Positions 48,014 through 64,000 of a stretch of 64,000 nt of DNA are shown here, one piece after another; positions within the stretch are counted from its first letter, which is position 1, and the number at the start of each line of letters is the position of its first letter. The stretch spans positions 16,100 through 80,099 of the forward strand of contig DATJPV010000036.1 of the NCBI GenBank assembly GCA_035506195.1, in the 5' to 3' direction. A program made the position numbers and the translations under genes. This stretch comes from Patescibacteria group bacterium (GTDB lineage Bacteria > Omnitrophota > Gorgyraeia > Gygaellales > Profunditerraquicolaceae). A model generated the notes under the pieces. It saw nothing but the letters and a program-made list of their open reading frames with translations, was not told where the DNA came from and made no database searches.

Positions 48014-48786
48014 TGACAAAATATTGCCGTGCCCTGACGTGTATCCTATTGTGGTGTGCTGCGCTTATTGCGGAAGCTTACGCGTTCAGCATCGAGCCGG
48101 GCCGGATCGAACTGGCTATCCCCGCGGGCCGGCAGAGAGGCAAGACCGTTACGATAGACAATCGGGATTCGGATGAGTCCCTGCACTTGAAGATATACGC
48201 TACCGACGTGATCTTCCTGCCCGATGGTACGAATGACTTTCCGCAGGCCGGCGCTACTGCCTGGTCTTGCGTAAAATGGGTGCGGGTAACCCCCGATGAG
48301 ATCGATGTCCCCGCAAAAAAGACACAGACCGTACGCGTCAACGTCACGGTCCCGCAAGGGGCCCAGGGCGGCTATTACGGGATGCTTTTCTTTGAATCCG
48401 GCATGCCCAGCCCCGCTAAGGGGCTCAATATCAACTTCCGCGTGGGCGGCCTTGTCGATGTGTCCGTCCCGGGCACCGAACAGTTCAGCGCCAAGGTCGC
48501 GCATATCAGCCTGTCTAGCCCCAAGAAGATCGAGGTCGGGATCTTTAATGAAGGCAATGTGTTGGTCAGGCCCAAGGGCAAAGTGAAGATCATGGATGCC
48601 CGCGGCAAAAGAATAAAACAAATTGATTTTAACCCCGCGGGATGGGGAGTGCTGCCTCGCAGCCTGCGCAAACTATACGTGGACCTGGACAAGCCTTTGA
48701 CGAGCGGGCAGTATACTATCCGGGTCGAGATCAACTACGGAACGAAGTACTTGTTGGTAGGAGAATCTCCGGTGCAGGTGCAATGA
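48010..48786 (+). CDS. Periplasmic PapD-like chaperone candidate (pattern-based)
   Basis: Signal peptide. The N-terminal FSIEPGRIELAIPAGRQRGKTVTIDNRDSDESLHLKIY matches the PapD-family A1/B1 strand pattern. Two beta-rich halves. TGA overlaps the next ATG. Confidence 0.4.
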   Translation: MMTKYCRALTCILLWCAALIAEAYAFSIEPGRIELAIPAGRQRGKTVTIDNRDSDESLHLKIYATDVIFLPDGTNDFPQAGATAWSCVKWVRVTPDEIDVPAKKTQTVRVNVTVPQGAQGGYYGMLFFESGMPSPAKGLNINFRVGGLVDVSVPGTEQFSAKVAHISLSSPKKIEVGIFNEGNVLVRPKGKVKIMDARGKRIKQIDFNPAGWGVLPRSLRKLYVDLDKPLTSGQYTIRVEINYGTKYLLVGESPVQVQ

Positions 48787-51700
48787 TGGGCGGCCAATGG
48801 CCTAAAATAAAAAAAGTAGCGGCATTGGCAGTGGCGGCGGTTTTTCTTGTCAGCCACTGCGGGTTCGCCGGCGTTGTACCCGGCGCAATGGCCGCTGACT
48901 ATTTGTTCGAGGTCGGTAAGCATTTTTATGACCAGGGCCGTTATGCGGATGCGCTGCATGAGTTCCACAAGGCCCTCATGCTTAACCCCGTCCATAAAGA
49001 GGTGCTGCGGTATATCGGCCTGATCACCGGCGCTGCGCAAGAAGTCTACATGGAAAAAGGCGTGGCGGTAGGCGCCGAGGCTCCTGGCGCGCCCAGGCCC
49101 AAAAGAGCAGTCTCTCCGGTAGGAACCCCTTTGATAACGATGCCCGGGCAGGCGCCTGCCGTGGCGCCTGCCGTGCTGCCAAAGCCGCAAAAGTCCCGGG
49201 AACAGTCTCTGGCCGAAGCCTTGAACGCCCAAGAGGCCGCAGTGCACCCAGGGCCGCAGGTTCCGGCTAAACCCGTGGCGCCTGTTGTTGTTCCCCGCGC
49301 TGCCGTTACTCCCGCACCTGCTGTCCCCGCAGCAAAAGAAGAGGCCGCGGAAACAGAAGGCCCCCGCTTGAACCTGTCCGCCATACAGCCTGCAGCCGTC
49401 AAGAAAGCCGGCGAGATCAGCCTTTTCATCAACGGCCAGGAAGTTTCCCTTGAGGAAGCCGTCCTCTTTAAAGACGGCCAGATCCTGGTGCCCCTGAAAG
49501 CAATAGCCCCTAAGTTATACTATAACCTTTTAGACCTCCAGGGCGGAAAATTTTCGCTCATCAACCCGGAAGGCAAAGCCCGCGATATCGCCGCCGTGCT
49601 TCAAGACGGCAAGCCGATGCTCGATGAAGGGCAGATCCGGGAGTATTTTTCTGCCCGTACCCGTTATGACGCCCAAGCCAAGGCCTTTTACATCGATACC
49701 CAGGCAAGCCAGGGCCTGAAATTGTATGTCCTGGAAAGGCCGCCGGAAGAAATACAGAAAGAAGCCCAGCAGCAAAAAGTCATTGCGCAGGCAACCGCCG
49801 TTCCGGAAAAACCCTCTGTTATCCCCGATGCAGCCCGGCCTTCGCTGGATGTCAGAGGCAACCTCAATTACACGTATTTCAAATATCATGTACTTCCGGT
49901 ATATCACGACCTTTCCTCCAGCCTTTACGGCCGGCTTTACGATTACAACCTGGCTTACCGCTCGGAATATAAAGATATAAACGGGCCGGTAAAGAACGAT
50001 TATACGACCATGTCTTTGTCTAAGCCGGGCATATACTACGGATTTTTCGACCAGTCGGCAGACCTGTATCCGCTGCGCCTGCAGTCAAGCGAGTTTACCG
50101 GCATCAAGGTGGTCCGCTCCCGGAATGAACTGACCAATACGACCCTCTGGGGCGGCCAGACCGAGAATACCATTGCCGGCACAAGCGGTTCGGTCAAGTA
50201 CCTCGGCAAGCTCTTTGGGGCAAGCCAGGATTTTTCGCCTATATACTGGTTGCACCTGAAGGGCGGGATGCTCTACACGGATAATACCGCAGACCAGCCT
50301 TCCCAGGTCGGCACCACTTCATACCCTCGCCAGAATTTCGTTACGTATTCCAACATAGCGCTGCAGCTGCCGCAGAGCACTACGCTTACCCTTTCCGGAG
50401 CCCACTGTTATTATTATCCCGATTATGCCCCCGATAGCGTGGCGATCCAGGATTGGGATTGGCGCATCGGCACGAATACGAATAAGCCGCGCTATAGCCT
50501 CGGTTTTGCGTATGAGAGGGTCGGCGAAAATTACGTCTCTATCGGGGACTCCGGCATTTACCAGGATTACCAGGGATGGGACCTTTACGGCGGCTGGAGG
50601 CCCACTGACCACTGGTCCATATTCACCAACGCCTCGCAGTACCATGATAACGTCTCGGATGACCCCCAGTCGGTTACTACCTATGCATCCAATTACGGCC
50701 TGTCTTCCGCTTACCGCATTACCGGGGACCAGACCGTTAACCTTATGTACAACCATTTTGTTTCGAATCCCGAAGGTCCGGCAGCCGGCCCCAGCGGCGT
50801 CAGCAACGTCTACCGGATAGACTATTTCCTGCCGCTTTTTTATCAGGTCCGCGGCTCGCTGAACTATGCGCTTACTCACTCCGATTCCGGCGGCTCCTTC
50901 GATTACGACGCCCCCAGCATAGGCGGGACCTTGTTCAGGTCGTTTGGCCAGGGCTCCAGCTGGTACCTGAGCCAGCAGGCAACCAATACCCTTTACCGGA
51001 ACCGGCCGGATAGCCACGACTACACCACGACCTTTAACCTGTATTATGCCATCAATCCGCTTTTGGCCGCGTATTTCAACGCCTCCTATGTCAGGAATGA
51101 CACCGATGGGGCGCACTCCACGAATCAGCTCTCCGGTGCTTTAGGGACCAGGTATAGCCTGTTCCCGGATACCACGTTAAGCTTCGAGTACAGCATCAAT
51201 TCGTATGACTTGCGCACGGAAAGAGACCGCTGGCCGAAAAGCTGGTCCATGCTTTTCTACGTAGCGCAAGGGTTCCAGATCAAGACCTCCCCGAATTTCG
51301 GTACGCTTGAAGGCCGGGTTTTCCAGGACCTCAACGATAACGGCAGGTGGGATTCCGGCGAACCCGGGGTGGAGGGAGCGCTTGTATACCTGGACGACAG
51401 GAGAGAGGCGACTACCGATGCGCGCGGGTATTTCAAGATCAACTATATGAATCCGATCCCGCAAAAAGTGTACCTGGACCTGGCGACGGTACCGCCGGAA
51501 TGGATGACCGCCCAGACGGAACAGTGGGTCCAGGTCAAGCCCAGGCGGGCATCGACGGTCGTCTTTGCCTTGCGCAAGGCCGCCGGCATCAAAGGGCGCG
51601 TCTTTGTCGACCAGAACGGCGACGGCATCTTCCAGGAAACGGAAGAGCCGCTGGAAAGCGTGGTCTTAAAACTCTCCCCGGGCGATCATATCACCCAGAC

Positions 51701-51881
51701 CAACGCCGACGGAGAGTTCAAGTTCGAATCCCTGGCGCCGGGGCACTATGCCCTGTCGATCTCCCCGGACGGGATCCCGACGGGTTATGAACTTACCTCC
51801 AAATCGGAAATAAAAATGGACCTGGCCGCAGGGGCACAGGTCCATGATACCAACTTTGCTCTCAAGCTTTCTACCCGCTAA
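48783..51881 (+). CDS. Large outer-membrane protein: TPR-like N-term, Pro/Ala linker, Cu-amine-oxidase-N1-like domain, beta-barrel-like region, two C-terminal CnaB/SdrD-B-like beta-sandwich domains (usher-like domain order)
   Basis: Signal peptide MMGGQWPKIKKVAALAVAAVFLVSHCGFAG. A TPR-like segment (GRYADALHEFHKALMLNP), ISLFINGQEVSLEEAVLFKDGQILVPLKAIAP, about 530 aa rich in alternating Y/S/T/N/G, then two copies of GRVF.D.N.NG..D..E.G. The ORF track also starts in-frame at 48642. Confidence 0.5.
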   Translation: MMGGQWPKIKKVAALAVAAVFLVSHCGFAGVVPGAMAADYLFEVGKHFYDQGRYADALHEFHKALMLNPVHKEVLRYIGLITGAAQEVYMEKGVAVGAEAPGAPRPKRAVSPVGTPLITMPGQAPAVAPAVLPKPQKSREQSLAEALNAQEAAVHPGPQVPAKPVAPVVVPRAAVTPAPAVPAAKEEAAETEGPRLNLSAIQPAAVKKAGEISLFINGQEVSLEEAVLFKDGQILVPLKAIAPKLYYNLLDLQGGKFSLINPEGKARDIAAVLQDGKPMLDEGQIREYFSARTRYDAQAKAFYIDTQASQGLKLYVLERPPEEIQKEAQQQKVIAQATAVPEKPSVIPDAARPSLDVRGNLNYTYFKYHVLPVYHDLSSSLYGRLYDYNLAYRSEYKDINGPVKNDYTTMSLSKPGIYYGFFDQSADLYPLRLQSSEFTGIKVVRSRNELTNTTLWGGQTENTIAGTSGSVKYLGKLFGASQDFSPIYWLHLKGGMLYTDNTADQPSQVGTTSYPRQNFVTYSNIALQLPQSTTLTLSGAHCYYYPDYAPDSVAIQDWDWRIGTNTNKPRYSLGFAYERVGENYVSIGDSGIYQDYQGWDLYGGWRPTDHWSIFTNASQYHDNVSDDPQSVTTYASNYGLSSAYRITGDQTVNLMYNHFVSNPEGPAAGPSGVSNVYRIDYFLPLFYQVRGSLNYALTHSDSGGSFDYDAPSIGGTLFRSFGQGSSWYLSQQATNTLYRNRPDSHDYTTTFNLYYAINPLLAAYFNASYVRNDTDGAHSTNQLSGALGTRYSLFPDTTLSFEYSINSYDLRTERDRWPKSWSMLFYVAQGFQIKTSPNFGTLEGRVFQDLNDNGRWDSGEPGVEGALVYLDDRREATTDARGYFKINYMNPIPQKVYLDLATVPPEWMTAQTEQWVQVKPRRASTVVFALRKAAGIKGRVFVDQNGDGIFQETEEPLESVVLKLSPGDHITQTNADGEFKFESLAPGHYALSISPDGIPTGYELTSKSEIKMDLAAGAQVHDTNFALKLSTR

Positions 51882-54587: not shown

Positions 54588-56015
54588 ATGGCATACGAAA
54601 CGGTTATCGGGCTGGAAGTCCACGTACACTTAAAGACCAAAACCAAGGCCTTCTGCGGCTGTTCGACGGAATTCGGCAATCCCCCCAATACGCAGGTCTG
54701 CCCCGTCTGCCTGGGGTTTCCGGGTTCGCTGCCGGTACTCAATACCGCCGCGCTTGACCATGCGATCAAGGTGGGCATTGCCTTGAACTGCACGGTGCAG
54801 GAGTATACGAAGTTCGACCGCAAGCATTACTACTATCCCGACCTGCCCAAAAACTACCAGATATCCCAATATGACCTGCCGGTATCCAAGGATGGGTTCC
54901 TGGATGTCGGCACAAGGCGCATCCGCATCAAGCGCGCCCATCTGGAGGAAGACGCAGGCAAGCTGATGCATGCTTCCCAGATAAGCCTGGTTGATTTCAA
55001 CCGCAGCGGCGTCCCCCTGCTTGAGATCGTCAGCGAACCGGACATCCGCTCTCCCCAGGAGGCGTATGAATACCTGGCGGCGTTAAAGAGTATCCTTGAA
55101 TACCTGGAGGTCTCGGACTGCGATATGGAGAAAGGGTCTTTGCGCTGCGACGCCAATGTTTCAATAAGGCCGCAAGGCAGCCGGGAACTGGGGACCAAGA
55201 CGGAGCTGAAGAACATGAATTCGTTTAAAGCCGTCAAAGACGCGCTCGCCTTCGAGATAACCCGGCAGACAGAGCTCGTCGAGCAGGGCGGCCAAGTCGT
55301 TCAGGACACCCGGTTATGGGACCCCAGAGAATCCAAGACCGTTTCCATGCGCACTAAAGAAGAAGCCAAAGATTACCGTTATTTTCCGGAACCGGACCTG
55401 CCGCCGTTTATCATCAGCAAGGAAAAGGTCGAAGCGGTCTGCAAGACCATATCCGAGTTGCCGAAAGAAAAATTGCAGCGTTTTGTGCGGGAGTACGGGC
55501 TGCTTGAGTCTGATGCCAGGATCCTCGTTGCCAATAAAAAAGACGCCGATTACGCCGAAGGCCTGATGCGGGCCTGGCCGGATAAAAATAAAAAGCCGGT
55601 CGTCAACTGGCTCATCGGCCCGCTTGCGGCAGCTGCCTCCGACCATAACACGAGCATCTCGGGGCTGAACATCCCCGGAGGCAACAGCGAGCTTATTAAG
55701 CTGGTGGCGTTCGTAGAGGAAGGTAAGGTCTCCAACCTTACGGCAAAAGAGGTTTTCAGCGACTCGCTTGCAAGCGGTACCCCTGCCTCCGGCATCATCC
55801 AGCAAAAAAACCTGTTTCAGGTGTCCGATACCGGGACTCTTGATACCTATGTCCAGGAAGCGATACGCGATAACGCGCCATCCGTCCTTGCGTACCGCTC
55901 CGGAAAGGCCAATGCGCTTATGTTCCTCGTAGGCCAGGTTATGAAAAAGACAGGCGGCAAAGCCAATCCCAAAGTAGTCCAGGAGATACTCAAGCGGAGG
56001 TTAGATAATGCGTAA
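54588..56015 (+). CDS. gatB: Glutamyl/aspartyl-tRNA amidotransferase subunit B
   Basis: MAYETVIGLEVHVHLKTKTKAFCGC GatB N-terminus. Confidence 0.9.
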   Translation: MAYETVIGLEVHVHLKTKTKAFCGCSTEFGNPPNTQVCPVCLGFPGSLPVLNTAALDHAIKVGIALNCTVQEYTKFDRKHYYYPDLPKNYQISQYDLPVSKDGFLDVGTRRIRIKRAHLEEDAGKLMHASQISLVDFNRSGVPLLEIVSEPDIRSPQEAYEYLAALKSILEYLEVSDCDMEKGSLRCDANVSIRPQGSRELGTKTELKNMNSFKAVKDALAFEITRQTELVEQGGQVVQDTRLWDPRESKTVSMRTKEEAKDYRYFPEPDLPPFIISKEKVEAVCKTISELPKEKLQRFVREYGLLESDARILVANKKDADYAEGLMRAWPDKNKKPVVNWLIGPLAAAASDHNTSISGLNIPGGNSELIKLVAFVEEGKVSNLTAKEVFSDSLASGTPASGIIQQKNLFQVSDTGTLDTYVQEAIRDNAPSVLAYRSGKANALMFLVGQVMKKTGGKANPKVVQEILKRRLDNA

Positions 56016-57288
56016 AAAATTAATTATCCCGGTACTGTTGTGCGCGGCGGTATTATGCATCAGCGCCGTCGTGATGTCCGAGGCGGAAAAAAGCAAGACT
56101 AAAGACGACTGGTACCGCCAGGTGGAGCTGTTCTCCGACGTGCTGGCGCTCATCCGCCAGAATTACGTCACCGAAGTCAACCCCAAAGACCTCATTTACG
56201 GGGCGCTCCGGGGGATGCTTTCCAGCCTTGACGCGCACAGCCAGTTCATGGACCCGGAAACCTACAGCGAGCTCAAAGTTGATACGGAAGGCAAATTCGG
56301 AGGCCTGGGGATAGAGATCACCCTGAAGGACGGGCTCTTGACGGTGGTCACGCCCATCGAAGATACCCCGGCCTGGAAGGCAGGCCTGAAGGCGAATGAC
56401 CGCATCGTCAAGATCGATAACGAGCTTACCCGCGACCTGACGCTTACCGACGCGGTAAAAAAATTGCGGGGCAGGCCCGGGGCGGCGGTAGAGCTTACCA
56501 TCCTGCGGGAATCGGAGAACAAGATCCTGGAGTTCAAGGTGGTCCGGGATATCATCAGGATAAAAGACATAAAAGTTGCCAAGATCCTCGAAGACGGTAT
56601 CGGCTATGTCCGGCTGGTGGAATTCCGGGAGAACACATCCACGGATATGGAGGCAGTGTTAAAGAGGCTTAAGTCAGAGGGGATGCGGGCGCTGGTGCTG
56701 GACCTGCGCAATAACCCCGGGGGCCTCTTGGATGTGGCGGTCGGCGTAGCGGAACGGTTCATCCCCAAAGGAAAGATGATCGTCTATACGCAAGGGCGCC
56801 AGGGCTCTCAGGATTTTAAATTCATCAGCCGCGCCGCTAACCCCATCCTGGACCTGCCCATGGTGGTCCTGGTCAACGAAGGTTCTGCCTCCGGCAGCGA
56901 GATTGTCGCCGGCTGCCTGCAGGACCACAAGAGGGCGATTATCCTGGGGACCAAATCCTTCGGCAAGGGCTCTGTCCAGACGGTGATCCCTCTTTCGGAC
57001 GGCTCGGCGCTGCGGCTGACCACCAGCAAATATTTTACTCCCGCCGGAAGGCAGATCCACGGTAAAGGCGTCATGCCCGATATCGTGGTCGAGAATGCCC
57101 GCGTGGAACCGGTGGATATGACGGCGCTGAGGCCCGATAAGTCGAAAGAGGTTTTTGAGGAGCTTGAGAGCAAAGAACCGAAGAAGCCCGCCGCGCAAGG
57201 CGCAGATTACGATTATCACCTTGATAACCAGCTTATGCACGCCCTGGATGTGCTCAAGGCGGTCATTATCTATAAACCCGCTGCGTAA
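56008..57288 (+). CDS. ctpA: Carboxyl-terminal processing protease (S41, PDZ domain)
   Basis: PDZ (GLGIEI...DGLLTVVTPIEDTPAWKAGL), S41 catalytic region (LVNEGSASGSEIVAG...KSFGKGSVQ). Confidence 0.85.
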   Translation: MRKKLIIPVLLCAAVLCISAVVMSEAEKSKTKDDWYRQVELFSDVLALIRQNYVTEVNPKDLIYGALRGMLSSLDAHSQFMDPETYSELKVDTEGKFGGLGIEITLKDGLLTVVTPIEDTPAWKAGLKANDRIVKIDNELTRDLTLTDAVKKLRGRPGAAVELTILRESENKILEFKVVRDIIRIKDIKVAKILEDGIGYVRLVEFRENTSTDMEAVLKRLKSEGMRALVLDLRNNPGGLLDVAVGVAERFIPKGKMIVYTQGRQGSQDFKFISRAANPILDLPMVVLVNEGSASGSEIVAGCLQDHKRAIILGTKSFGKGSVQTVIPLSDGSALRLTTSKYFTPAGRQIHGKGVMPDIVVENARVEPVDMTALRPDKSKEVFEELESKEPKKPAAQGADYDYHLDNQLMHALDVLKAVIIYKPAA

Positions 57289-57301
57289 CGATTGAACCCA
57301 T

Positions 57302-58105
57302 ATGCATAAAGATTCCGCTTACCGGCTGTCCATTTTCTTTCTGTTGATACTGGTCGTCGTAGAAGGCTTTTTCCTTTTGCGGCTCCTGAAGCCTCCTGCG
57401 GCCAGGGCCGTCAAGCCAAAGCCCAGGCCTGCTGCTGCGGTTGCCAAAGGCAAGATCGCCATAGTCCTTGATGACTGGGGCTATAATCTCAATAATGAGG
57501 CGGTATTGGCGAGGATCAAGTATCCCTTGACGCTTTCGGTGCTGCCGAACCTGCCCTATTCGGTAGCCATCAGCGAGAAGGCGCGCCGCCTGGGCTTTGA
57601 AACCATCCTTCATTTGCCGATGGAGCCGCATGAGAAATACCGCCTGGAACACAATACGATCCTGACCACCATGGATGAAGCGGCTATTACCGGCATCATG
57701 GCGCAGGACCTGAGGGAATTCCCGGGCATCAAGGGCATTTCCAATCATCAGGGTTCCAAGGCTACCGAGGACCCCCGGACGATGAAGATCATCTTTGCGG
57801 AATTGAAGAACCGCGGGCTTTATTTCCTGGACAGCGTCGTATCCGCGCACTCGGTGTGCTCAGGCCTTGCCCGAAGCATGAAAATAGGCTTTGCCCGCAG
57901 GGATGTCTTTCTGGATAATAGCGACAACCCGGAGTATATCAAGGCTCAGCTTCAGAAATTGAAAGCCAAGGCCAGAAGCGCAGGCTACGCCATCGGCATC
58001 GGCCACGACCGCAAGAACACCCTGCAGGTTTTGGAAGAGATGATGCCTCTTTTTGCGCAAGAAGGCTACACATTCGTATTCGTATCGGAGCTTGCCTGGC
58101 AATGA
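57302..58105 (+). CDS. Divergent polysaccharide deacetylase family protein (YibQ-like)
   Basis: IAIVLDDWGYN...LPMEPHE...SNHQGSKAT pattern of PF04748. N-terminal TM helix. Confidence 0.7.
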   Translation: MHKDSAYRLSIFFLLILVVVEGFFLLRLLKPPAARAVKPKPRPAAAVAKGKIAIVLDDWGYNLNNEAVLARIKYPLTLSVLPNLPYSVAISEKARRLGFETILHLPMEPHEKYRLEHNTILTTMDEAAITGIMAQDLREFPGIKGISNHQGSKATEDPRTMKIIFAELKNRGLYFLDSVVSAHSVCSGLARSMKIGFARRDVFLDNSDNPEYIKAQLQKLKAKARSAGYAIGIGHDRKNTLQVLEEMMPLFAQEGYTFVFVSELAWQ

Positions 58106-59085
58106 TAGTCCTTGGCATCGAAACTTCCTGCGATGAGACTTCCGCGGCCCTGGTGAAAAACGGCCGGGATGTGCTTTCCAATGTGGTTAGTTCCAGCCTT
58201 GCGTTCCACAGCAAATACGGAGGGGTGGTCCCGGAGATCGCCTCGCGCATGCAGCTGGAGGCGATCGTCAAGGTAACAGATACGGCCTTGCGCCAGGCAG
58301 GCATCAAGCGCCAAAATATCGGCCTGGTCTGCGTGACCCACGCTCCGGGGCTCCTGGGTTCTTTGGTCGTGGGGCTTTCTTTTGCCAAGGCGCTGAGCGT
58401 AAGCCTCCGGGTGCCGGTGTTGGGCGTCAACCATCTCTGCAGCCACATCTATGCCAATTTTCTCGATGCCCGGCCGATACGCTTGCCGTTCGTTGCCCTC
58501 ATTATTTCCGGAGGGCATACGAGCCTGTTCTTTGTACGGGACTTCAACGCCATCCGCAGCATCGGCGCTACGCTTGACGATGCCTGCGGGGAGGCCTTTG
58601 ACAAAGTAGCAAAGATCCTCGGGCTGGGGTATCCCGGCGGGCCGCCTATCGAGCGGCTGGCCCTGCGCGGCGATCCGCACAAGTTCAGGTTTAAATGTTC
58701 CGAAACTCGCCGGCCCCTGGATTTCAGTTTCAGCGGGATAAAGACCGCGGTCCTGTATCAGGCCAAAGGCGCGAATGTGCGCGCTCCGGAAAAAGCAGAT
58801 ATTGCCGCTTCTTTTCAGGAGGCGGTGGTTGAGACGGTGGCCAGAAAAGCAATGGCTGCCTGCCGCAGGTACAAAGTCCCCCGGCTGGTAGTAGGAGGAG
58901 GGGTAGCGGCCAACAGCCGGCTGCGCCAAGTTTTCCGGCAGCAAGCCCCGGCAGCAGGCGTAGAGGTGTATTTCCCTCCCAAGCCGCTGTGTATGGATAA
59001 TGCGGCAATGGTTGCCGGGTTAGGTTATCGCCTGTATATGAAGGGCGCGCGTTCGGATTTAAGCCTCGGGGTAGAGCTGAACTAG
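58102..59085 (+). CDS. tsaD: tRNA N6-adenosine threonylcarbamoyltransferase
   Basis: MIVLGIETSCDETSAAL and Kae1/TsaD metal-binding motifs. Confidence 0.9.
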   Translation: MIVLGIETSCDETSAALVKNGRDVLSNVVSSSLAFHSKYGGVVPEIASRMQLEAIVKVTDTALRQAGIKRQNIGLVCVTHAPGLLGSLVVGLSFAKALSVSLRVPVLGVNHLCSHIYANFLDARPIRLPFVALIISGGHTSLFFVRDFNAIRSIGATLDDACGEAFDKVAKILGLGYPGGPPIERLALRGDPHKFRFKCSETRRPLDFSFSGIKTAVLYQAKGANVRAPEKADIAASFQEAVVETVARKAMAACRRYKVPRLVVGGGVAANSRLRQVFRQQAPAAGVEVYFPPKPLCMDNAAMVAGLGYRLYMKGARSDLSLGVELN

Positions 59086-59108
59086 GGTTTCGTAAAAGGA
59101 GGGACATA

Positions 59109-59549
59109 ATGCTCACGGATCTGCAGATCATCGCACGGCTTACTTTATCCCTGGTATTGAGCGGCCTCATCGGCTTGGAGCGCCAGGTCCATCGCCGCAC
59201 CGCGGGTATGCGTACGCATATCCTGGTATGCCTGGGTTCCTGCCTTATCATGTTGACATCGCTGTATGTTTTTGATATATATAAACAGATAGCGCACCTG
59301 GACCCGACGCGCATCGCTGCCGGCATTACTACCGGCATCGGCTTTTTAGGGGCGGGAGCGATCATCCGCCAGAGAGAGACCGTTGATTCGGTCGTGGGCC
59401 TGACTACCGCGGCCAGCCTCTGGGTGGTCGCGGGTATCGGCATGGCAATAGGGTGCGGGTTTTACATCGCCGGGATATATACGACTGTCCTGGCGCTGGT
59501 CGTGCTTTTCTTTTTCCGGACCTTCGAAGCTAAAATATCGGTGAAGTAG
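59109..59549 (+). CDS. mgtC: MgtC/SapB-family membrane protein
   Basis: LTLSLVLSGLIGLERQ...RTHILVCLGS MgtC N-terminal signature. Confidence 0.8.
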   Translation: MLTDLQIIARLTLSLVLSGLIGLERQVHRRTAGMRTHILVCLGSCLIMLTSLYVFDIYKQIAHLDPTRIAAGITTGIGFLGAGAIIRQRETVDSVVGLTTAASLWVVAGIGMAIGCGFYIAGIYTTVLALVVLFFFRTFEAKISVK

Positions 59550-59560
59550 GACAAAAGGAG

Positions 59561-60073
59561 GTGGTTGCCGTGGCTTTTAAAAAGAAGATTGAAGAAAAAA
59601 TCCTTGATGTGGATGCGTCCATGCAGGGGACCCTGTCGTTCAAGGATCCCGTGAACCTGAGGGTAAACGGCAAATTTGAGGGGAACCTGGAGACCCGCGG
59701 GAACCTGACGATCGGCCCGACCGCCACGGTCATTGCCGATATCATCGGCGACAACATCATCATCGGCGGCAGGATCAAAGGCAAGGTCGTCGCCAAGGAA
59801 AGGCTGACGCTTTTGCCCAGCGCGGTCGTCGAGGGGGAGATCTACCCCGTGAAATTGAATGTTGCCGAAGGGGCGATCTTCGAAGGCAAATGCACCATGC
59901 TCCATGATTTTATGAACGCCGAAGAGCTGGCGCGTTACCTGGAAGTCGATCTCAACGCCATCCTTGACTGGGCCAATAACGGCAAGGTCCCGGGCGCTAA
60001 GGAAGGCAACAACTGGAAGTTCGAGCGCAAGGCGATCGACTCCTGGGTTGCCGCCGGCAAGGTCGGCAAGTAA
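59561..60073 (+). CDS. Bactofilin-domain protein fused to C-terminal excisionase-type HTH (HTH_17)
   Basis: Bactofilin beta-helix repeats (GNLTIGPTATVIADIIGDNIIIGGRIKGKVVAKERLTLLPSAVVEGEIY) followed by EELARYLEVDLNAILDWANNGKVPGAKEGNNWKFERKAIDSWV. Confidence 0.65.
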   Translation: MVAVAFKKKIEEKILDVDASMQGTLSFKDPVNLRVNGKFEGNLETRGNLTIGPTATVIADIIGDNIIIGGRIKGKVVAKERLTLLPSAVVEGEIYPVKLNVAEGAIFEGKCTMLHDFMNAEELARYLEVDLNAILDWANNGKVPGAKEGNNWKFERKAIDSWVAAGKVGK

Positions 60074-60074
60074 A

Positions 60075-60386
60075 ATGACGGAAGAAAAACTTTTGACGAT
60101 CAGGGATGTTTCCATCGCCCTGGGGGTCTCTGAAAAAGAGGTCATGGACCTGGCAGAGGCAGGGCAGCTGCCCGCATACAAGATCGGCGGAATGTATCTG
60201 CGCTTTAAGGCGCACCAGATCGAGGAGTACAAACGCAAAATGCGCGCCGCCGCGTCTTATCAGCCCACGCAGGAAACGTATTCGCTGGGCGAGAGGATCC
60301 GCGATTTTTTCTATTTCAATGATTTTTACATCCTCTCGGCGCTGCTTATCATGATCATGCTCGTAGTCATATTGCGGGGATATTAA
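60075..60386 (+). CDS. Excisionase-type HTH (HTH_17) protein with C-terminal TM anchor
   Basis: LTIRDVSIALGVSEKEVMDLAEAGQLPAYKIGGMYLRFKAHQIEEY plus a C-terminal hydrophobic helix. Start at MTEEKLL within ORF 59964. Confidence 0.55.
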   Translation: MTEEKLLTIRDVSIALGVSEKEVMDLAEAGQLPAYKIGGMYLRFKAHQIEEYKRKMRAAASYQPTQETYSLGERIRDFFYFNDFYILSALLIMIMLVVILRGY

Positions 60387-60392
60387 GATATA

Positions 60393-61061
60393 ATGGCTTC
60401 TACTCGAGGGTTTTGCGACCTGGGTTTTGCAAAATTGGATGTCGACAGGCAAAAGCGGCGCGGTTTTTCGGAAGCGATCTACTGCCCCGGCAAGAGCCGG
60501 GAGCATCTCAAGAAAATCTCCCTTCGGCTGTTGGCTGCCAAGCAGGACCTGCTCCTGACGAAACTGGACCAGCCCACCTACGCGTACTTGAAACGCTCGA
60601 TCCGTTCCCTGCGCTACAATCCTCTGGCAAAGATCGGGTTTTGCGTCCGTACGCGCACGCACGCCCAAAAGGCGGATGTCATAGTCATCTCTGCCGGGAC
60701 TGCGGATGTGCCGGTAGCGGAGGAGGCGGCAGTGACCCTGGAGGTCATGGGCAGCCCGGTGGTCAGGCTTTACGATGTAGGGGTCGCCGGCGTGCACCGG
60801 CTGATGAGCAATCTTGATACCATACGCAAGGCCAAAGTAGTCATCGTCGTTGCCGGGATGGAAGGGGCCCTGGCAAGCCTGGTGAGCGGCCTGGTAAGCG
60901 CTCCGGTCATTGCCGTGCCTACCAGCTGCGGCTACGGAGCCAGTTTCGGCGGCTTGTCGGCACTTCTGACGATGCTCAATAGTTGTTCTCCGGGCGTAGC
61001 AACGGTTAATATCGATAACGGCTTCGGCGCGGGGTATTTCGCGCATTTGATCAATCAATAG
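60393..61061 (+). CDS. larB: LarB-like PurE/AIR-carboxylase-family protein (nickel-pincer cofactor biosynthesis carboxylase/hydrolase)
   Basis: PurE-fold motifs VIVISAGTADVPVAEEA...VIVVAGMEGALASLV with a LarB-type N-terminal extension. Confidence 0.7.
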   Translation: MASTRGFCDLGFAKLDVDRQKRRGFSEAIYCPGKSREHLKKISLRLLAAKQDLLLTKLDQPTYAYLKRSIRSLRYNPLAKIGFCVRTRTHAQKADVIVISAGTADVPVAEEAAVTLEVMGSPVVRLYDVGVAGVHRLMSNLDTIRKAKVVIVVAGMEGALASLVSGLVSAPVIAVPTSCGYGASFGGLSALLTMLNSCSPGVATVNIDNGFGAGYFAHLINQ

Positions 61062-61077
61062 GAGGTAGTACACGCAC

Positions 61078-62409
61078 ATGGCACTTTCCGGCTTAGATAT
61101 TTATAAACTTTTACCGAAGACCAACTGCAAGGAATGCGGGTTTGCGACCTGCCTTGCGTTTGCGATGCAGCTTGCCAAGAAGGCGGTCAGTATCGAGAAA
61201 TGCCCCTTCTTAAGCGAAGATGCCAAAAAAATGCTGGAGGCTTCGAGCCTGCCGCCCATCAAGCTGGTCACCATAGGACAGCCTGACAGGAAGCTTGAGG
61301 TCGGCAATGAAACGGTGCTCTTCCGCCACGAAGAGAAGTTCCATCATCCTGCCGGTATCGGCTTTATCCTTCAAGACAGCCTCAGCGACGAGCAATTGGC
61401 CAAAAAGGCCCAGGCGATCGACCGCCTGCAATTTGAACGCGTCGGCCAGAAGATAAGCGTTGACCTGGTGGCGCTTGCGCAGACCGGTTCGGCAGAGCGT
61501 TTCCTGAAGGCGGTGCAGCTGGTTTCGCGCACGACCACGCTTAGCATGGCCTTAGTCAGCAATGACCCCGCAGCTCTGCAGCCGGCATTGGAGTTCCTCA
61601 AGGGCAAAAAACCGCTGATATATCCGGACGCAGCCGGAGAGAACATTAGCCGGATAGGCGGCCTGGCGGCAAGCTTCAAGGTTCCCATGGTAGCGGTGGC
61701 GCCCGATCTGGACAAACTGTCGCAGCTGACCAGGGAATTGAACAGCCTCGGCGTCCAGGAACTCCTTCTGGATACGGGCAAAAAACCGCTGGCGGAAAAG
61801 ATATGGGACCTTACCCAGCTGCGCCGGCAGGCGCTTAAAAAATCAAACCGCAGCCTGGGGTATCCGGCGCTGGCCGTGGTGGATTGCGCCGATCCGTACG
61901 AAGAGGTCATGGAAGCAGCGACCTATATCTCAAAGTACGCCGGCATCGTGCTCTTGAAGGGCGATGCGCCGTGGCAGGCGCTGGCATTGTTGACCCTGCG
62001 CCAGAACATTTACACCGACCCCCAGAAACCCCTGCAGATCGAGCCGAAACTCTATCCCATCGGCAATGCCGGGGCTGCCTCACCGGTCCTGGTAACGACG
62101 AATTTTTCGCTTTCATACTATACGGTCCTAGGAGAGGTCGAGGCAAGCAGGGTGCCGTCTTACATCATGAGCGTCGATACCGAGGGCATGTCGGTGCTGA
62201 CGGCCTGGGCAGCAGAGAAGTTCACCCCGGAAAAGATCACCGCATCCCTGAAAAAATTCAACGTCGCCGATACCGTTTCTCACCGGAACCTGGTGATCCC
62301 CGGTTATGTCGCCGTCATGAGCGGCCAACTGGAGGAGGACTCCGGCTGGAAGGTGGTCGTCGGTCCGAAAGAGGCAGCCGGGATACCGTCGTTTTTGAAA
62401 AACCTGTAG
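61078..62409 (+). CDS. acsC: Corrinoid iron-sulfur protein large subunit (CODH/ACS gamma subunit)
   Basis: N-terminal 4Fe-4S motif LPKTNCKECGFATCLAFAMQLA...KCPFLSE followed by a TIM-barrel corrinoid-binding domain. Length 443 aa is typical. Confidence 0.75.
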   Translation: MALSGLDIYKLLPKTNCKECGFATCLAFAMQLAKKAVSIEKCPFLSEDAKKMLEASSLPPIKLVTIGQPDRKLEVGNETVLFRHEEKFHHPAGIGFILQDSLSDEQLAKKAQAIDRLQFERVGQKISVDLVALAQTGSAERFLKAVQLVSRTTTLSMALVSNDPAALQPALEFLKGKKPLIYPDAAGENISRIGGLAASFKVPMVAVAPDLDKLSQLTRELNSLGVQELLLDTGKKPLAEKIWDLTQLRRQALKKSNRSLGYPALAVVDCADPYEEVMEAATYISKYAGIVLLKGDAPWQALALLTLRQNIYTDPQKPLQIEPKLYPIGNAGAASPVLVTTNFSLSYYTVLGEVEASRVPSYIMSVDTEGMSVLTAWAAEKFTPEKITASLKKFNVADTVSHRNLVIPGYVAVMSGQLEEDSGWKVVVGPKEAAGIPSFLKNL

Positions 62410-62410
62410 A

Positions 62411-64000
62411 ATGGAAAAAATAAAAGTTACATTTTATCCCGACCGCACATCCGTAGAGGTAGCAAAAGGCGAGCCTATCCTTTCTGCGCTGTCTGCCGCC
62501 GGCATTCACATTCATTCTGCCTGCGGCGGTAATGGCGGCTGCGGGCGCTGTAAGGTAAAAGTAAAAAGCGGCAAGGTCTGCATGCGGCCTACCGGGCTGA
62601 TCAGCCCGGAAGAGCGCAGCAAAGGGATCTTCCTGGCCTGCCTGACCTCTGCCGAAAGCGACCTGGAGGTCGAAGTACCGCAGGAATCACGCCAGGAATA
62701 CGGCGTCTTGAGCCCTGAGGAGATCGATACCCGCCTGAAGGGCATCTATGCGGCGGCCGAAGACGTGGAGGCTGCCTCCGCCCAGGCCCCGGCGGCCGGC
62801 TTTACCTATGGGCCGCTGGCAACCAAGGTGTATATGGAGCTTTTGCCTCCTGACTTGAATGATAAGACCAGCGACCTGGAAAGGCTGGAACGCCAGATAC
62901 GTTTTGTCGTCAAGAACGCGGACAACATCGCGGTCTCCAACCCCAGCGCAAACCTGACCTTCATCCGCGAACTGGGCAAGCAGCTGCGCAGCGCCAACTG
63001 GAAGGTGACGGTTACCCTCGGCAAGCGCGCCAACGACGCCCTGGAGATGCTTTTGATCGAGCCGCAGGATACCACGGGCCTGAATTACGGCATCTGTTTT
63101 GATATCGGGACAACGACCCTGTCTGCGCAGTTGATCGACTTGAATAACGGCACGGTTCTGGGCACCCGGGGCACCTACAACAAACAAGCCACCTTCGGCA
63201 GCGACGTGATCAGCCGGATCGTATACGCGCATCAGGCAAACGGCCTGGAGAAGCTCCATCAGGCGGTCATCGAAGAATTGAACCGCATGGCGTATGAACT
63301 GATCCTGTCGGAGCATATCCCGACCAACAGCGTCAATTATTTTGTCTGCGCGGGCAATACGACCATGACCCAGCTTCTTTTGCGGGTCGACCCTACGTAT
63401 ATTCGCAAAGAGCCGTATGTGCCGACCGCCAATTTTTTTCCTGTCGTCAACGCCCACGACGAAGGCTTTAAGCTCAATCAGCATGCGCTCCTGGCCTGCG
63501 TCCCCGGGGTATCCAGTTATGTCGGCGGGGATGTGACTGCGGGCGTCTTATCCAGCGGCCTGGACACCCAGGAGCACTTGTGCATGCTTATCGATATCGG
63601 CACTAACGGCGAGATCGTGGTGGGGAACAAGGAATTTCTGATCTCTGCCGCTGCTTCGGCAGGGCCGGCGTTCGAAGGCTCCGGGGTAGCCTGCGGGATG
63701 CGGGCATCGCCGGGGGCGATACAGAAAGTCAAGATCAGCCCGCGTACTTTCGAGGTATCCTGCGAAGTGATCGGCAAGATCCTTCCGCAGGGCATCTGCG
63801 GCTCGGGGTATATCGACGCCATATCCGGCATGCTGCAGGCGGGCCTATTGGATAAGAACGGCAAGATAAGGGCGCGTTCCCATCCCCGTATCCGGCAGAC
63901 AGATTCCGGCAAAGAATTCGTGCTGGTGCACAAAGAAGACTGCGATACGGCTTACGATATTGTTATTACCGAAGCGGACATCGAGAACATAAAACGGGCA
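62411..64000 (+). CDS. RACo-like corrinoid activation/regeneration protein (2Fe-2S ferredoxin + ASKHA ATPase), 3'-truncated by window end
   Basis: Not in the ORF track (no stop before the window end). Plant-type ferredoxin motif HSACGGNGGCGRCKVKV, then a DUF4445/ASKHA-like domain (GICFDIGTTT...LIDIGTNGEIV). 530 in-frame codons. Confidence 0.7.
   Translation, partial: MEKIKVTFYPDRTSVEVAKGEPILSALSAAGIHIHSACGGNGGCGRCKVKVKSGKVCMRPTGLISPEERSKGIFLACLTSAESDLEVEVPQESRQEYGVLSPEEIDTRLKGIYAAAEDVEAASAQAPAAGFTYGPLATKVYMELLPPDLNDKTSDLERLERQIRFVVKNADNIAVSNPSANLTFIRELGKQLRSANWKVTVTLGKRANDALEMLLIEPQDTTGLNYGICFDIGTTTLSAQLIDLNNGTVLGTRGTYNKQATFGSDVISRIVYAHQANGLEKLHQAVIEELNRMAYELILSEHIPTNSVNYFVCAGNTTMTQLLLRVDPTYIRKEPYVPTANFFPVVNAHDEGFKLNQHALLACVPGVSSYVGGDVTAGVLSSGLDTQEHLCMLIDIGTNGEIVVGNKEFLISAAASAGPAFEGSGVACGMRASPGAIQKVKISPRTFEVSCEVIGKILPQGICGSGYIDAISGMLQAGLLDKNGKIRARSHPRIRQTDSGKEFVLVHKEDCDTAYDIVITEADIENIKRA

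Follow-up and report, generated by a model that had tools for sequence, protein, structure and literature searches.

Several described proteins, namely RacA, RocS, RicO and pSK1 Par, tether chromosomes or plasmids through a common plan that combines a MerR-type winged helix-turn-helix (wHTH), a multimeriser and a membrane or pole anchor (PMC4914108; PMC11500499; bioRxiv 10.64898/2026.03.06.710092). In this study, we analyzed a 64,000-nucleotide stretch of contig DATJPV010000036.1 (hereafter the window), focusing on two adjacent plus-strand genes: gene A, which encodes a bactofilin fused to a wHTH, and gene B, which encodes a small wHTH protein with a predicted C-terminal transmembrane (TM) helix. 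Bactofilins polymerize into filaments independently of nucleotides and generally act as scaffolds for cell-wall enzymes, and in Myxococcus they are indirect organizers of the ParABS system. Omnitrophota, the phylum to which the relatives of this locus belong, is uncultured and consists of very small cells whose cell biology is little known; to our knowledge, it has no model organism. Judged by analogy, A (putative membrane peptide, polymer and wHTH) and B (wHTH and TM helix) fit the plan of RacA, RocS and RicO with different parts. The explanation that we favor, at a probability of roughly 40%, is that A and B constitute a membrane-proximal, wHTH-bearing bactofilin scaffold that tethers or organizes chromosomal DNA. 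While the bactofilin and HTH_17 families are themselves known, what is new here is a phylum-specific and very strongly constrained fusion with an obligate partner. Our literature search found no description of a bactofilin-HTH fusion, nor of any Omnitrophota bactofilin, and the database names attached to A and B are limited to "polymer-forming cytoskeletal protein" or "excisionase family DNA binding protein" (Joint Genome Institute, JGI).

Gene A encodes a two-domain protein. An earlier note, made from the sequence alone, had described it as a bactofilin fused to an excisionase-type helix-turn-helix (HTH), and both families are found above their gathering scores in Pfam: Bactofilin (PF04519) covers residues 11-108 (E 6.5e-24, 84.5 bits against a cutoff of 27.9), spanning profile positions 2-97 of 98, and HTH_17 (PF12728) covers residues 114-162 (E 2.4e-9, 37.8 bits against a cutoff of 27). 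The features of gene A are the following.

59554..59560, plus strand: ribosome-binding site AAGGAGG of gene A, read from the sequence, 9 nt upstream of the GTG at 59570
59570..60073, plus strand: gene A, bactofilin-wHTH fusion of 167 aa, with a GTG start and a TAA stop at 60071-60073
59570..59599, plus strand: N-terminal peptide MAFKKKIEEK (aa 1-10), candidate bactofilin membrane-targeting sequence, from conservation and likeness to BacA
59600..59893, plus strand: bactofilin beta-helix domain of A (aa 11-108), PF04519 match
59909..60055, plus strand: MerR/Xis-type winged helix-turn-helix, HTH_17, of A (aa 114-162), PF12728 match

The start of gene A is probably the GTG at 59570 rather than position 59561, which is the start in the list of open reading frames (ORFs) and had been taken as the start of the locus, because of the ribosome-binding site, the MAFKKK-type start and the length of 166-173 aa in homologues; the end of gene B at 60386 stands as first given. 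Homologues of A extracted from other loci begin with MAFKKK or a close variant. The antisense ORFs over A and B (59462-60238 and 59997-61079, minus strand) gave no family matches.

A structural model of A, generated with AlphaFold2 (AF2) from 21 diverse family members, has a mean predicted local distance difference test (pLDDT) score of 92.3 and comprises a beta-helix followed, after a linker of about five residues, by a winged helix of β-α-α-β-β-α topology (strand 114-116, helices 117-124 and 128-136, strands 143-145 and 148-152, helix 153-161). The beta-helix was matched by Foldseek to BacA (2n3d, TM-score 0.84), and the HTH half to BldC, RdfS, RacA and Xis with a root-mean-square deviation (RMSD) of 1.2-2.5 Å; the C-terminal segment folds as a winged HTH, as had been anticipated. 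In sequence searches, the bactofilin part also matches PDB 6ria (Thermus) and 2n3d (Caulobacter), with E about 1e-5.

Polymerization of canonical bactofilins requires a hydrophobic residue at the C-terminal interface (F105 in TtBac, F130 in BacA), whose change to arginine abolishes it (PMC12448750; the role is also given in the title of 6ria). F104 of A aligns with both residues and the position is occupied by F, L or M in the clade, and in this alignment the interface hydrophobic residue is conserved in A. The membrane-targeting sequence of BacA is MFSKQAKS, in which F2, K4 and K7 are critical; the survey of such sequences highlights phyla other than Omnitrophota (PMC12448750). MFSRKTE is a further example of a bactofilin membrane-targeting peptide. 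MAFKKKIEEK of A resembles the BacA peptide in its Met, Phe and Lys cluster, with an extra Ala before the Phe, and is a candidate membrane-targeting sequence through which A would bind the membrane.

Gene B follows at once, its ATG lying one base past the TAA of A (TAA-A-ATG), and the two genes are translationally close-coupled. The earlier description of this second gene as an HTH_17 protein with a C-terminal membrane helix agrees with both Pfam and AF2. Its features are as follows.

60075..60386, plus strand: gene B, predicted tail-anchored wHTH membrane protein of 103 aa, from HTH_17 and the AF2 model; 748 homologues
60090..60242, plus strand: wHTH (HTH_17) of B (aa 6-56), PF12728 match
60303..60329, plus strand: conserved juxtamembrane motif DFFYFNDFY of B (aa 77-85), from the homologue alignment
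60324..60374, plus strand: predicted C-terminal transmembrane helix of B (aa 84-100, FYILSALLIMIMLVVIL), from the AF2 helix and uniform hydrophobicity

HTH_17 covers residues 6-56 of B (E 3.4e-9, 37.2 bits against a cutoff of 27). The AF2 model consists of a winged helix, a low-confidence or disordered linker, and helices at 71-81 and 83-102; the latter is modeled at a pLDDT of 89-94 and contains the segment F84-L100, which is uniformly hydrophobic in all homologues. Since only RGY comes after the hydrophobic helix, B is predicted from this model to be a tail-anchored membrane protein. The juxtamembrane motif, of the form DF(F/L)YFNDFY, is conserved more strongly than the HTH: N82, D83, F84 and Y85 do not vary, and F78 and Y80 scarcely do, even in homologues of 25-39% identity, and DFFYFNDFY is specific enough to retrieve 440 relatives from metagenomes. 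A profile search with the B HTH found Xis proteins and BldC, with Pukovnik Xis at E 3e-4, and Foldseek placed RacA (5i44) at the top for the B model, with BldC and Xis also among the top matches. The HTHs of A and B have no similarity detectable by BLASTP, and a recent duplication as their origin was rejected on this ground.

The pairing of the two genes is strict in the main clade. B lies directly after A in all 47 loci found via A that extend downstream, and the reverse search of metagenomes via the B motif found A directly upstream in 64 of the 64 loci with enough upstream DNA; A and B are conserved neighbors, as the earlier note had supposed. Members of A with 47-54% identity (loci L045, L046, L053, L054 and L055) keep the pair, with different genes downstream. 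As a separate observation, the intergenic spacer measures 1 nt in the window versus 59-158 nt in other loci (L001 6505-6634, L010 1052-1176, L017, L023, L028 5508-5575, L032 and L055 3841-3899). These long spacers often hold very stable hairpins (about -24 to -52 kcal/mol) and have no shared sequence motif; the hairpins could be terminators or attenuators, or insertions resembling repetitive extragenic palindromes (REP) that uncouple the expression of A and B.

Relatives of A are numerous and phylum-specific. A total of 2,409 relatives are detectable, and the best 120 of these are 77-96% identical, 166-173 aa long and two-domain; all named ones among these 120 are Omnitrophota metagenome-assembled genomes (MAGs). 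When one genome per GTDB species was scanned, A was found in 44 loci, in records titled Omnitrophota and, in several cases, "uncultured Planctomycetales". An exhaustive survey of bactofilin-HTH fusions among 50%-identity representatives, as proposed in the earlier note, returned about 20-25 clusters with the full fusion, and a profile of the most distant fusions retrieved almost only Omnitrophota names before scores fell abruptly to plain bactofilins. Taxonomic labels are inconsistent: an exact copy of B is filed under "Patescibacteria group", one A homologue under "Pacebacteria" and several MAGs under "uncultured Planctomycetales" (P0271 and P0407; L005, L008, L022 and others). Despite these mixed labels, the relatives and the synteny of the A-B pair point to Omnitrophota.

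Across the conserved block (window 54588-62409 and L005-L048), the mean identity to the window protein is 76.5% for A (over 43 Omnitrophota species), 70.5% for MgtC, 68.6% for LarB, 65.1% for CdhD, 63.3% for CtpA, 62.3% for GatB, 59.8% for TsaD and 54.6% for B. A exceeds each neighbor in 26/26 to 40/42 species comparisons, and its conservation is high despite wide differences in guanine-cytosine (GC) content among the genomes, as judged from MAG names (_40_, _41_). Within A, mean identity is highest in the N-terminal decapeptide MAFKKKxEEK (87%), followed by the beta-helix (79%) and the HTH (74%). A is under very strong purifying selection.

Variants of the architecture occur at the edge of the family. 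In one bactofilin (P0151), 46% identical to the core of A, a C-terminal PilZ domain of the type that acts as a receptor for cyclic di-guanosine monophosphate replaces HTH_17; therefore, the C-terminal module of this bactofilin lineage seems interchangeable. Two other proteins (P0170 and P0217) are made up of HTH_17 repeated in tandem, three or two times, with about 34% identity to the A HTH, and may be free-standing multivalent versions of that domain. In the most distant clade, resembling "Omnitrophica WOR_2" (L049, L050, L051 and L056), the fusion is preceded by a conserved unknown gene of 213-217 aa and followed by a histidine kinase and a sigma54 response regulator. Two genes upstream of the fusion, L049 (1-7731) and L050 encode a ParA/MipZ-type ATPase whose C-terminal domain is AMPK1_CBM, and in L049 a MscS-like membrane protein comes directly after A.

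In the window, the locus belongs to an array on one strand composed of pheA, DAHP (3-deoxy-D-arabino-heptulosonate 7-phosphate) synthase, lepA, lepB, plsY, gatA, gatB, ctpA, a YibQ-type deacetylase gene, tsaD, mgtC, A, B, larB and cdhD. In the gene-order comparison of the 44 species loci, gatB-ctpA-deacetylase-tsaD-mgtC-A-B is kept in every locus reaching far enough, with larB-cdhD next in nearly all. GC content is uniform over the A-B locus, and no integrase, att-like repeat, methyltransferase, defense gene or GC anomaly was found near it. The A-B pair is part of the chromosomal core, not of a plasmid or mobile element. A closed Omnitrophota genome (CP070807, 1.82 Mb; L054 1-8930) has the order dnaG-rpoD-gatCAB-ctpA-tsaD-mgtC-A-B, in which the pair closes a block resembling a macromolecular-synthesis-operon neighborhood.

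Other observations concern the surroundings. The larB gene (60393-61061; nickel-pincer cofactor synthesis, NF033503, E 2.3e-85) stands between B and genes of acetyl-CoA synthase/carbon monoxide dehydrogenase, and window 61078-64000 encodes cdhD, RACo and a CooC-like ATPase, with an FmdE-domain gene inserted there in some relatives. Gene-strand bias is extreme: over window 1-64000, every ORF of at least 200 aa with a family match lies on the plus strand, and the minus-strand ORFs overlap plus-strand genes, the two that were scanned having no family match. A 1079-aa protein (window 48642-51881) has a C-terminal SdrD_B/carboxypeptidase-regulatory-like match as its sole family match, and its first ~980 residues match nothing.

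In a profile search with the A HTH, the best solved match is RacA (E 1.6e-4), followed by BldC (E 1.9e-3) and then the mycobacteriophage (Pukovnik) Xis. This likeness, together with that of the B fold, gives the idea of chromosome anchoring, already put forward in the earlier note, one independent lead; the plasmid half of that idea falls away with the chromosomal core location of the locus. RacA contacts bases through K15 and R19, which all RacA homologues keep and whose exchange for alanine abolishes DNA binding, and contacts phosphates through R30 and Y36 (PMC4914108). These positions were located in A by mapping the HMMER alignment of the A HTH onto the published RacA-DNA structure (PMC4914108). 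The wing of A has K144 and W149 at the R30 and Y36 positions, within a conserved basic and aromatic set (K139, K144, W149, F151 and R153) in which K139 and R153 never vary and K144 hardly does, and B keeps the basic wing position with K36.

Several observations weigh against DNA tethering. At the positions of RacA K15 and R19, A has N129 and D133 (N/S and D/E clade-wide), and B has K21 at the first and D25 at the second, whereas in the alignment both positions are K/R in BldC and the small terminase, and Pukovnik Xis has K at the K15 position and an Arg one residue earlier than the R19 position. Across the A family, the HTH ranges from neutral to acidic, its net charge being -10 to +3 and its isoelectric point mostly 4-6.5; counted from the alignments, BldC and Xis reach +5, but the equivalent stretch of RacA is also about -1, and charge alone is thus not decisive. 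CbpM, a protein binder of MerR fold, appears among the fold matches of both A and B. The short linker to the HTH could interfere with A's C-terminal polymerization interface. The repeated DNA motif that the earlier note had thought might lie nearby did not appear: the 64 kb window has no repeated k-mers, palindrome family or parS-like site above chance. Moreover, the most distant clade carries the fusion, 29% identical to A, without B, and the pairing that is strict in the main clade does not extend to the whole family.

The fold of the A domain is certain, and a canonical major-groove reading is doubtful, judging by the residues, because the K15 and R19 equivalents are replaced while the wing positions are kept. 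Any DNA binding by A may instead be driven by wing and backbone contacts, weak per subunit and dependent on the avidity of a polymer.

Family names other than HTH_17 were considered for the two domains and rejected. The excisionase model TIGR01764 scores 27.4 and 28.7 bits against a cutoff of 28.8, with no integrase or att context, and MADS1 (MAD1 HTH, NF047737) scores 43.6 and 32.8 bits against a cutoff of 80, with no defense genes nearby. PADLOC matched the HTH only (E 1e-5 to 7e-8), and the PHROG excisionase matches are weak and reflect the generic HTH_17 fold. BldC was likewise rejected as a name, its NCBIfam model reaching 14 where 77 is required, and so was MamR, on a score below cutoff. 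Nor is either protein a member of the RacA family: A has other residues in place of K15 and R19, lacks a coiled coil, and has a beta-helix as its multimeriser.

Among the alternatives, the one that survives best, although we consider it unlikely, is that both wHTHs are degenerate protein-interaction modules. B would then be a membrane receptor or client of the A filament, contacted HTH to HTH or through DFFYFNDFY, and the pair would serve the envelope, cell shape or division, as most bactofilins do. The acidic or neutral recognition helices lacking K15 and R19 equivalents speak for this explanation, as does the presence of CbpM among the structural matches; however, both HTHs exceed the HTH_17 gathering threshold, their nearest solved relatives all bind DNA, and the wing of A retains its basic and aromatic phosphate-contact positions. 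Bactofilins are known to recruit bitopic clients by short cytoplasmic peptides, as with PbpC 1-13 and BacA (PMC12448750), and in B the juxtamembrane motif outranks the HTH in conservation. The two HTHs have no detectable similarity to each other and so give no hint of a symmetric dimer pair. With PilZ replacing the HTH in a close bactofilin relative, the C-terminal module behaves as a swappable adaptor would. The envelope genes ctpA and the YibQ-type deacetylase gene lie in the same conserved block, but with such mixed housekeeping neighbors this linkage says little about function.

A distinctly improbable alternative is a transcription-factor sequestration switch, in which one or both HTHs would be sequence-specific and their access to DNA would be set by polymerization or membrane tethering, in the manner of BacR (YhbD) or BldC-type regulators. 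BacR provides the precedent, being an HTH regulator encoded with bactofilins that is recruited to the membrane and released to the nucleoid on cell-wall stress (PMC13649987); a Pfam scan of A and B, however, gave no DUF4004 match, and the covalent fusion means that the A HTH is not releasable from the polymer. Nor is a release mechanism evident, as A and B contain no protease site, sensor or ligand domain and the periplasmic part of B amounts to 2-4 residues. BldC is among the best matches of both HTHs and the WOR_2-like fusion has genes for a histidine kinase and a sigma54 response regulator as neighbors, but no conserved operator-like repeats occur near the operon, and a conservation of A above that of GatB and TsaD suits a structural protein better than a regulator.

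A mobile-element or defense piece (an Xis- or MADS1-like HTH fused by chance) or an assembly or annotation artefact, suggested by the JGI excisionase name and by the weak matches to MADS1, TIGR01764 and PHROG excisionases, is effectively refuted, since these matches cover the generic HTH_17 fold only and miss their cutoffs (43.6 vs 80 and 27.4 vs 28.8 bits), the locus lacks an integrase, att-like repeat, methyltransferase or GC anomaly, its housekeeping synteny is fixed in 44 species genomes, and a fusion of the same length recurs in thousands of independent assemblies (lengths taken from the best 120 of the 2,409 relatives).

For the favored explanation, a scaffold that tethers chromosomal DNA, we infer the following arrangement. 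A would polymerize via its bactofilin beta-helix and lie on the inner face of the membrane via the conserved N-terminal MAFKKK peptide, so that one MerR/Xis-type wHTH would be displayed per subunit, while B, as a tail-anchored membrane protein, would offer a second and unrelated wHTH. BacA binds a 13-residue cytoplasmic peptide (PbpC 1-13) of the bitopic protein PbpC near its C-terminal interface, and only when polymerized (PMC12448750). By analogy with this PbpC tail, the DFFYFNDFY motif may be the peptide by which B docks onto the A polymer, and its role as a counterpart of the PbpC peptide is plausible. The most likely job of such an assembly would be to hold chromosomal DNA at the membrane by many weak wHTH-DNA contacts made effective by polymer avidity, following the logic of RacA-DivIVA, RocS and RicO. 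The fuller claim, that a bactofilin polymer binding DNA directly through per-subunit wHTHs, together with a tail-anchored wHTH partner, is a phylum-wide core nucleoid-membrane anchor, is put forward tentatively and at somewhat less than even odds.

If true, this would give the first demonstration of a bactofilin in contact with the chromosome that needs no adaptors of the ParB/PadC type, and a new solution to chromosome organization: the link between cytoskeleton and chromosome would be direct, and the principle of RacA, RocS and RicO would reach beyond Firmicutes with entirely different parts. If the HTHs do not bind DNA, the pair would instead clearly exemplify a MerR fold put to another use, as the protein adaptor of a cytoskeletal polymer. 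In either case, the pair, which is chromosomal, single-copy at the locus and, for A, conserved above universal housekeeping proteins, provides a handle on the organization of DNA or envelope in Omnitrophota, and the small size of the proteins (167 and 103 aa) makes heterologous work easy.

Compared with canonical bactofilins such as BacA of C. crescentus and TtBac, A has the same PF04519 beta-helix and C-terminal interface hydrophobic residue, and a similar N-terminal Met/Phe/Lys peptide. Canonical bactofilins carry disordered tails, whereas in A a folded 50-aa wHTH begins about five residues after the core. BacA has a bitopic client, PbpC, that binds through a short cytoplasmic peptide; B differs from PbpC in having no enzymatic or periplasmic domain. 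Meanwhile, the wHTHs resemble the small monomeric domains of BldC of Streptomyces (RMSD 1.0-1.7 Å) and of excisionases such as Pukovnik Xis, RdfS and Tn916 Xis (1.2-2.5 Å). On DNA these proteins form cooperative coats, either head-to-tail or filamentous, and an HTH array displayed on a polymer would mimic this, but they are free-standing and basic, bear K/R on the recognition helix, and serve transcription or recombination. Like the A HTH, BacR/YhbD of B. subtilis is genetically linked to bactofilins (BacEF), which hold it at the membrane (PMC13649987), yet BacR is a DUF4004 protein in its own right and shuttles to the nucleoid, whereas the HTH of A is covalently fused and has no DUF4004 match.

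In Myxococcus xanthus, the BacNOP-PadC-ParB/ParA system likewise uses a bactofilin polymer to position chromosomal DNA (PMC5703909). There the link to DNA is indirect, running from bactofilin to PadC, an adaptor with a ParB-like domain, which recruits ParA and ParB-parS, whereas the bactofilin of A carries a fused putative DNA-binding domain of its own. The conserved A-B block contains no PadC or ParB-like gene, and a ParA/MipZ-like gene lies near the fusion only in the WOR_2-like clade. The likeness to this system drawn in the earlier note holds as loose logic only, with no PadC- or ParB-like adaptor present and with closer parallels elsewhere.

RocS of S. pneumoniae, RicO of S. aureus and pSK1 Par bridge DNA and membrane with an N-terminal MerR-type wHTH, a multimerization region and a C-terminal membrane element (PMC11500499; bioRxiv 10.64898/2026.03.06.710092). 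B shares the RocS/RicO order of wHTH, linker and membrane anchor, a likeness of domain plan rather than a sequence match. Their anchor is an amphipathic helix that needs oligomerization, whereas that of B is predicted to be a true hydrophobic TM helix with no coiled coil, and these proteins belong to Firmicutes and have no bactofilin partner. RacA, with DivIVA in B. subtilis, resembles A in joining a MerR-type wHTH to a multimerizing domain with a tie to the membrane or pole, and anchors by many weak DNA contacts combined with oligomerization. In RacA the multimeriser is a C-terminal coiled coil that binds DivIVA, through which the membrane is reached; in A the multimeriser is the bactofilin beta-helix, the anchor would be the N-terminal peptide and/or the TM protein B, and the domains come in the opposite order, the HTH being C-terminal. 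By this analogy of plan, RacA-DivIVA, RocS and RicO appear to be closer counterparts of the A-B pair than BacNOP-PadC-ParB.

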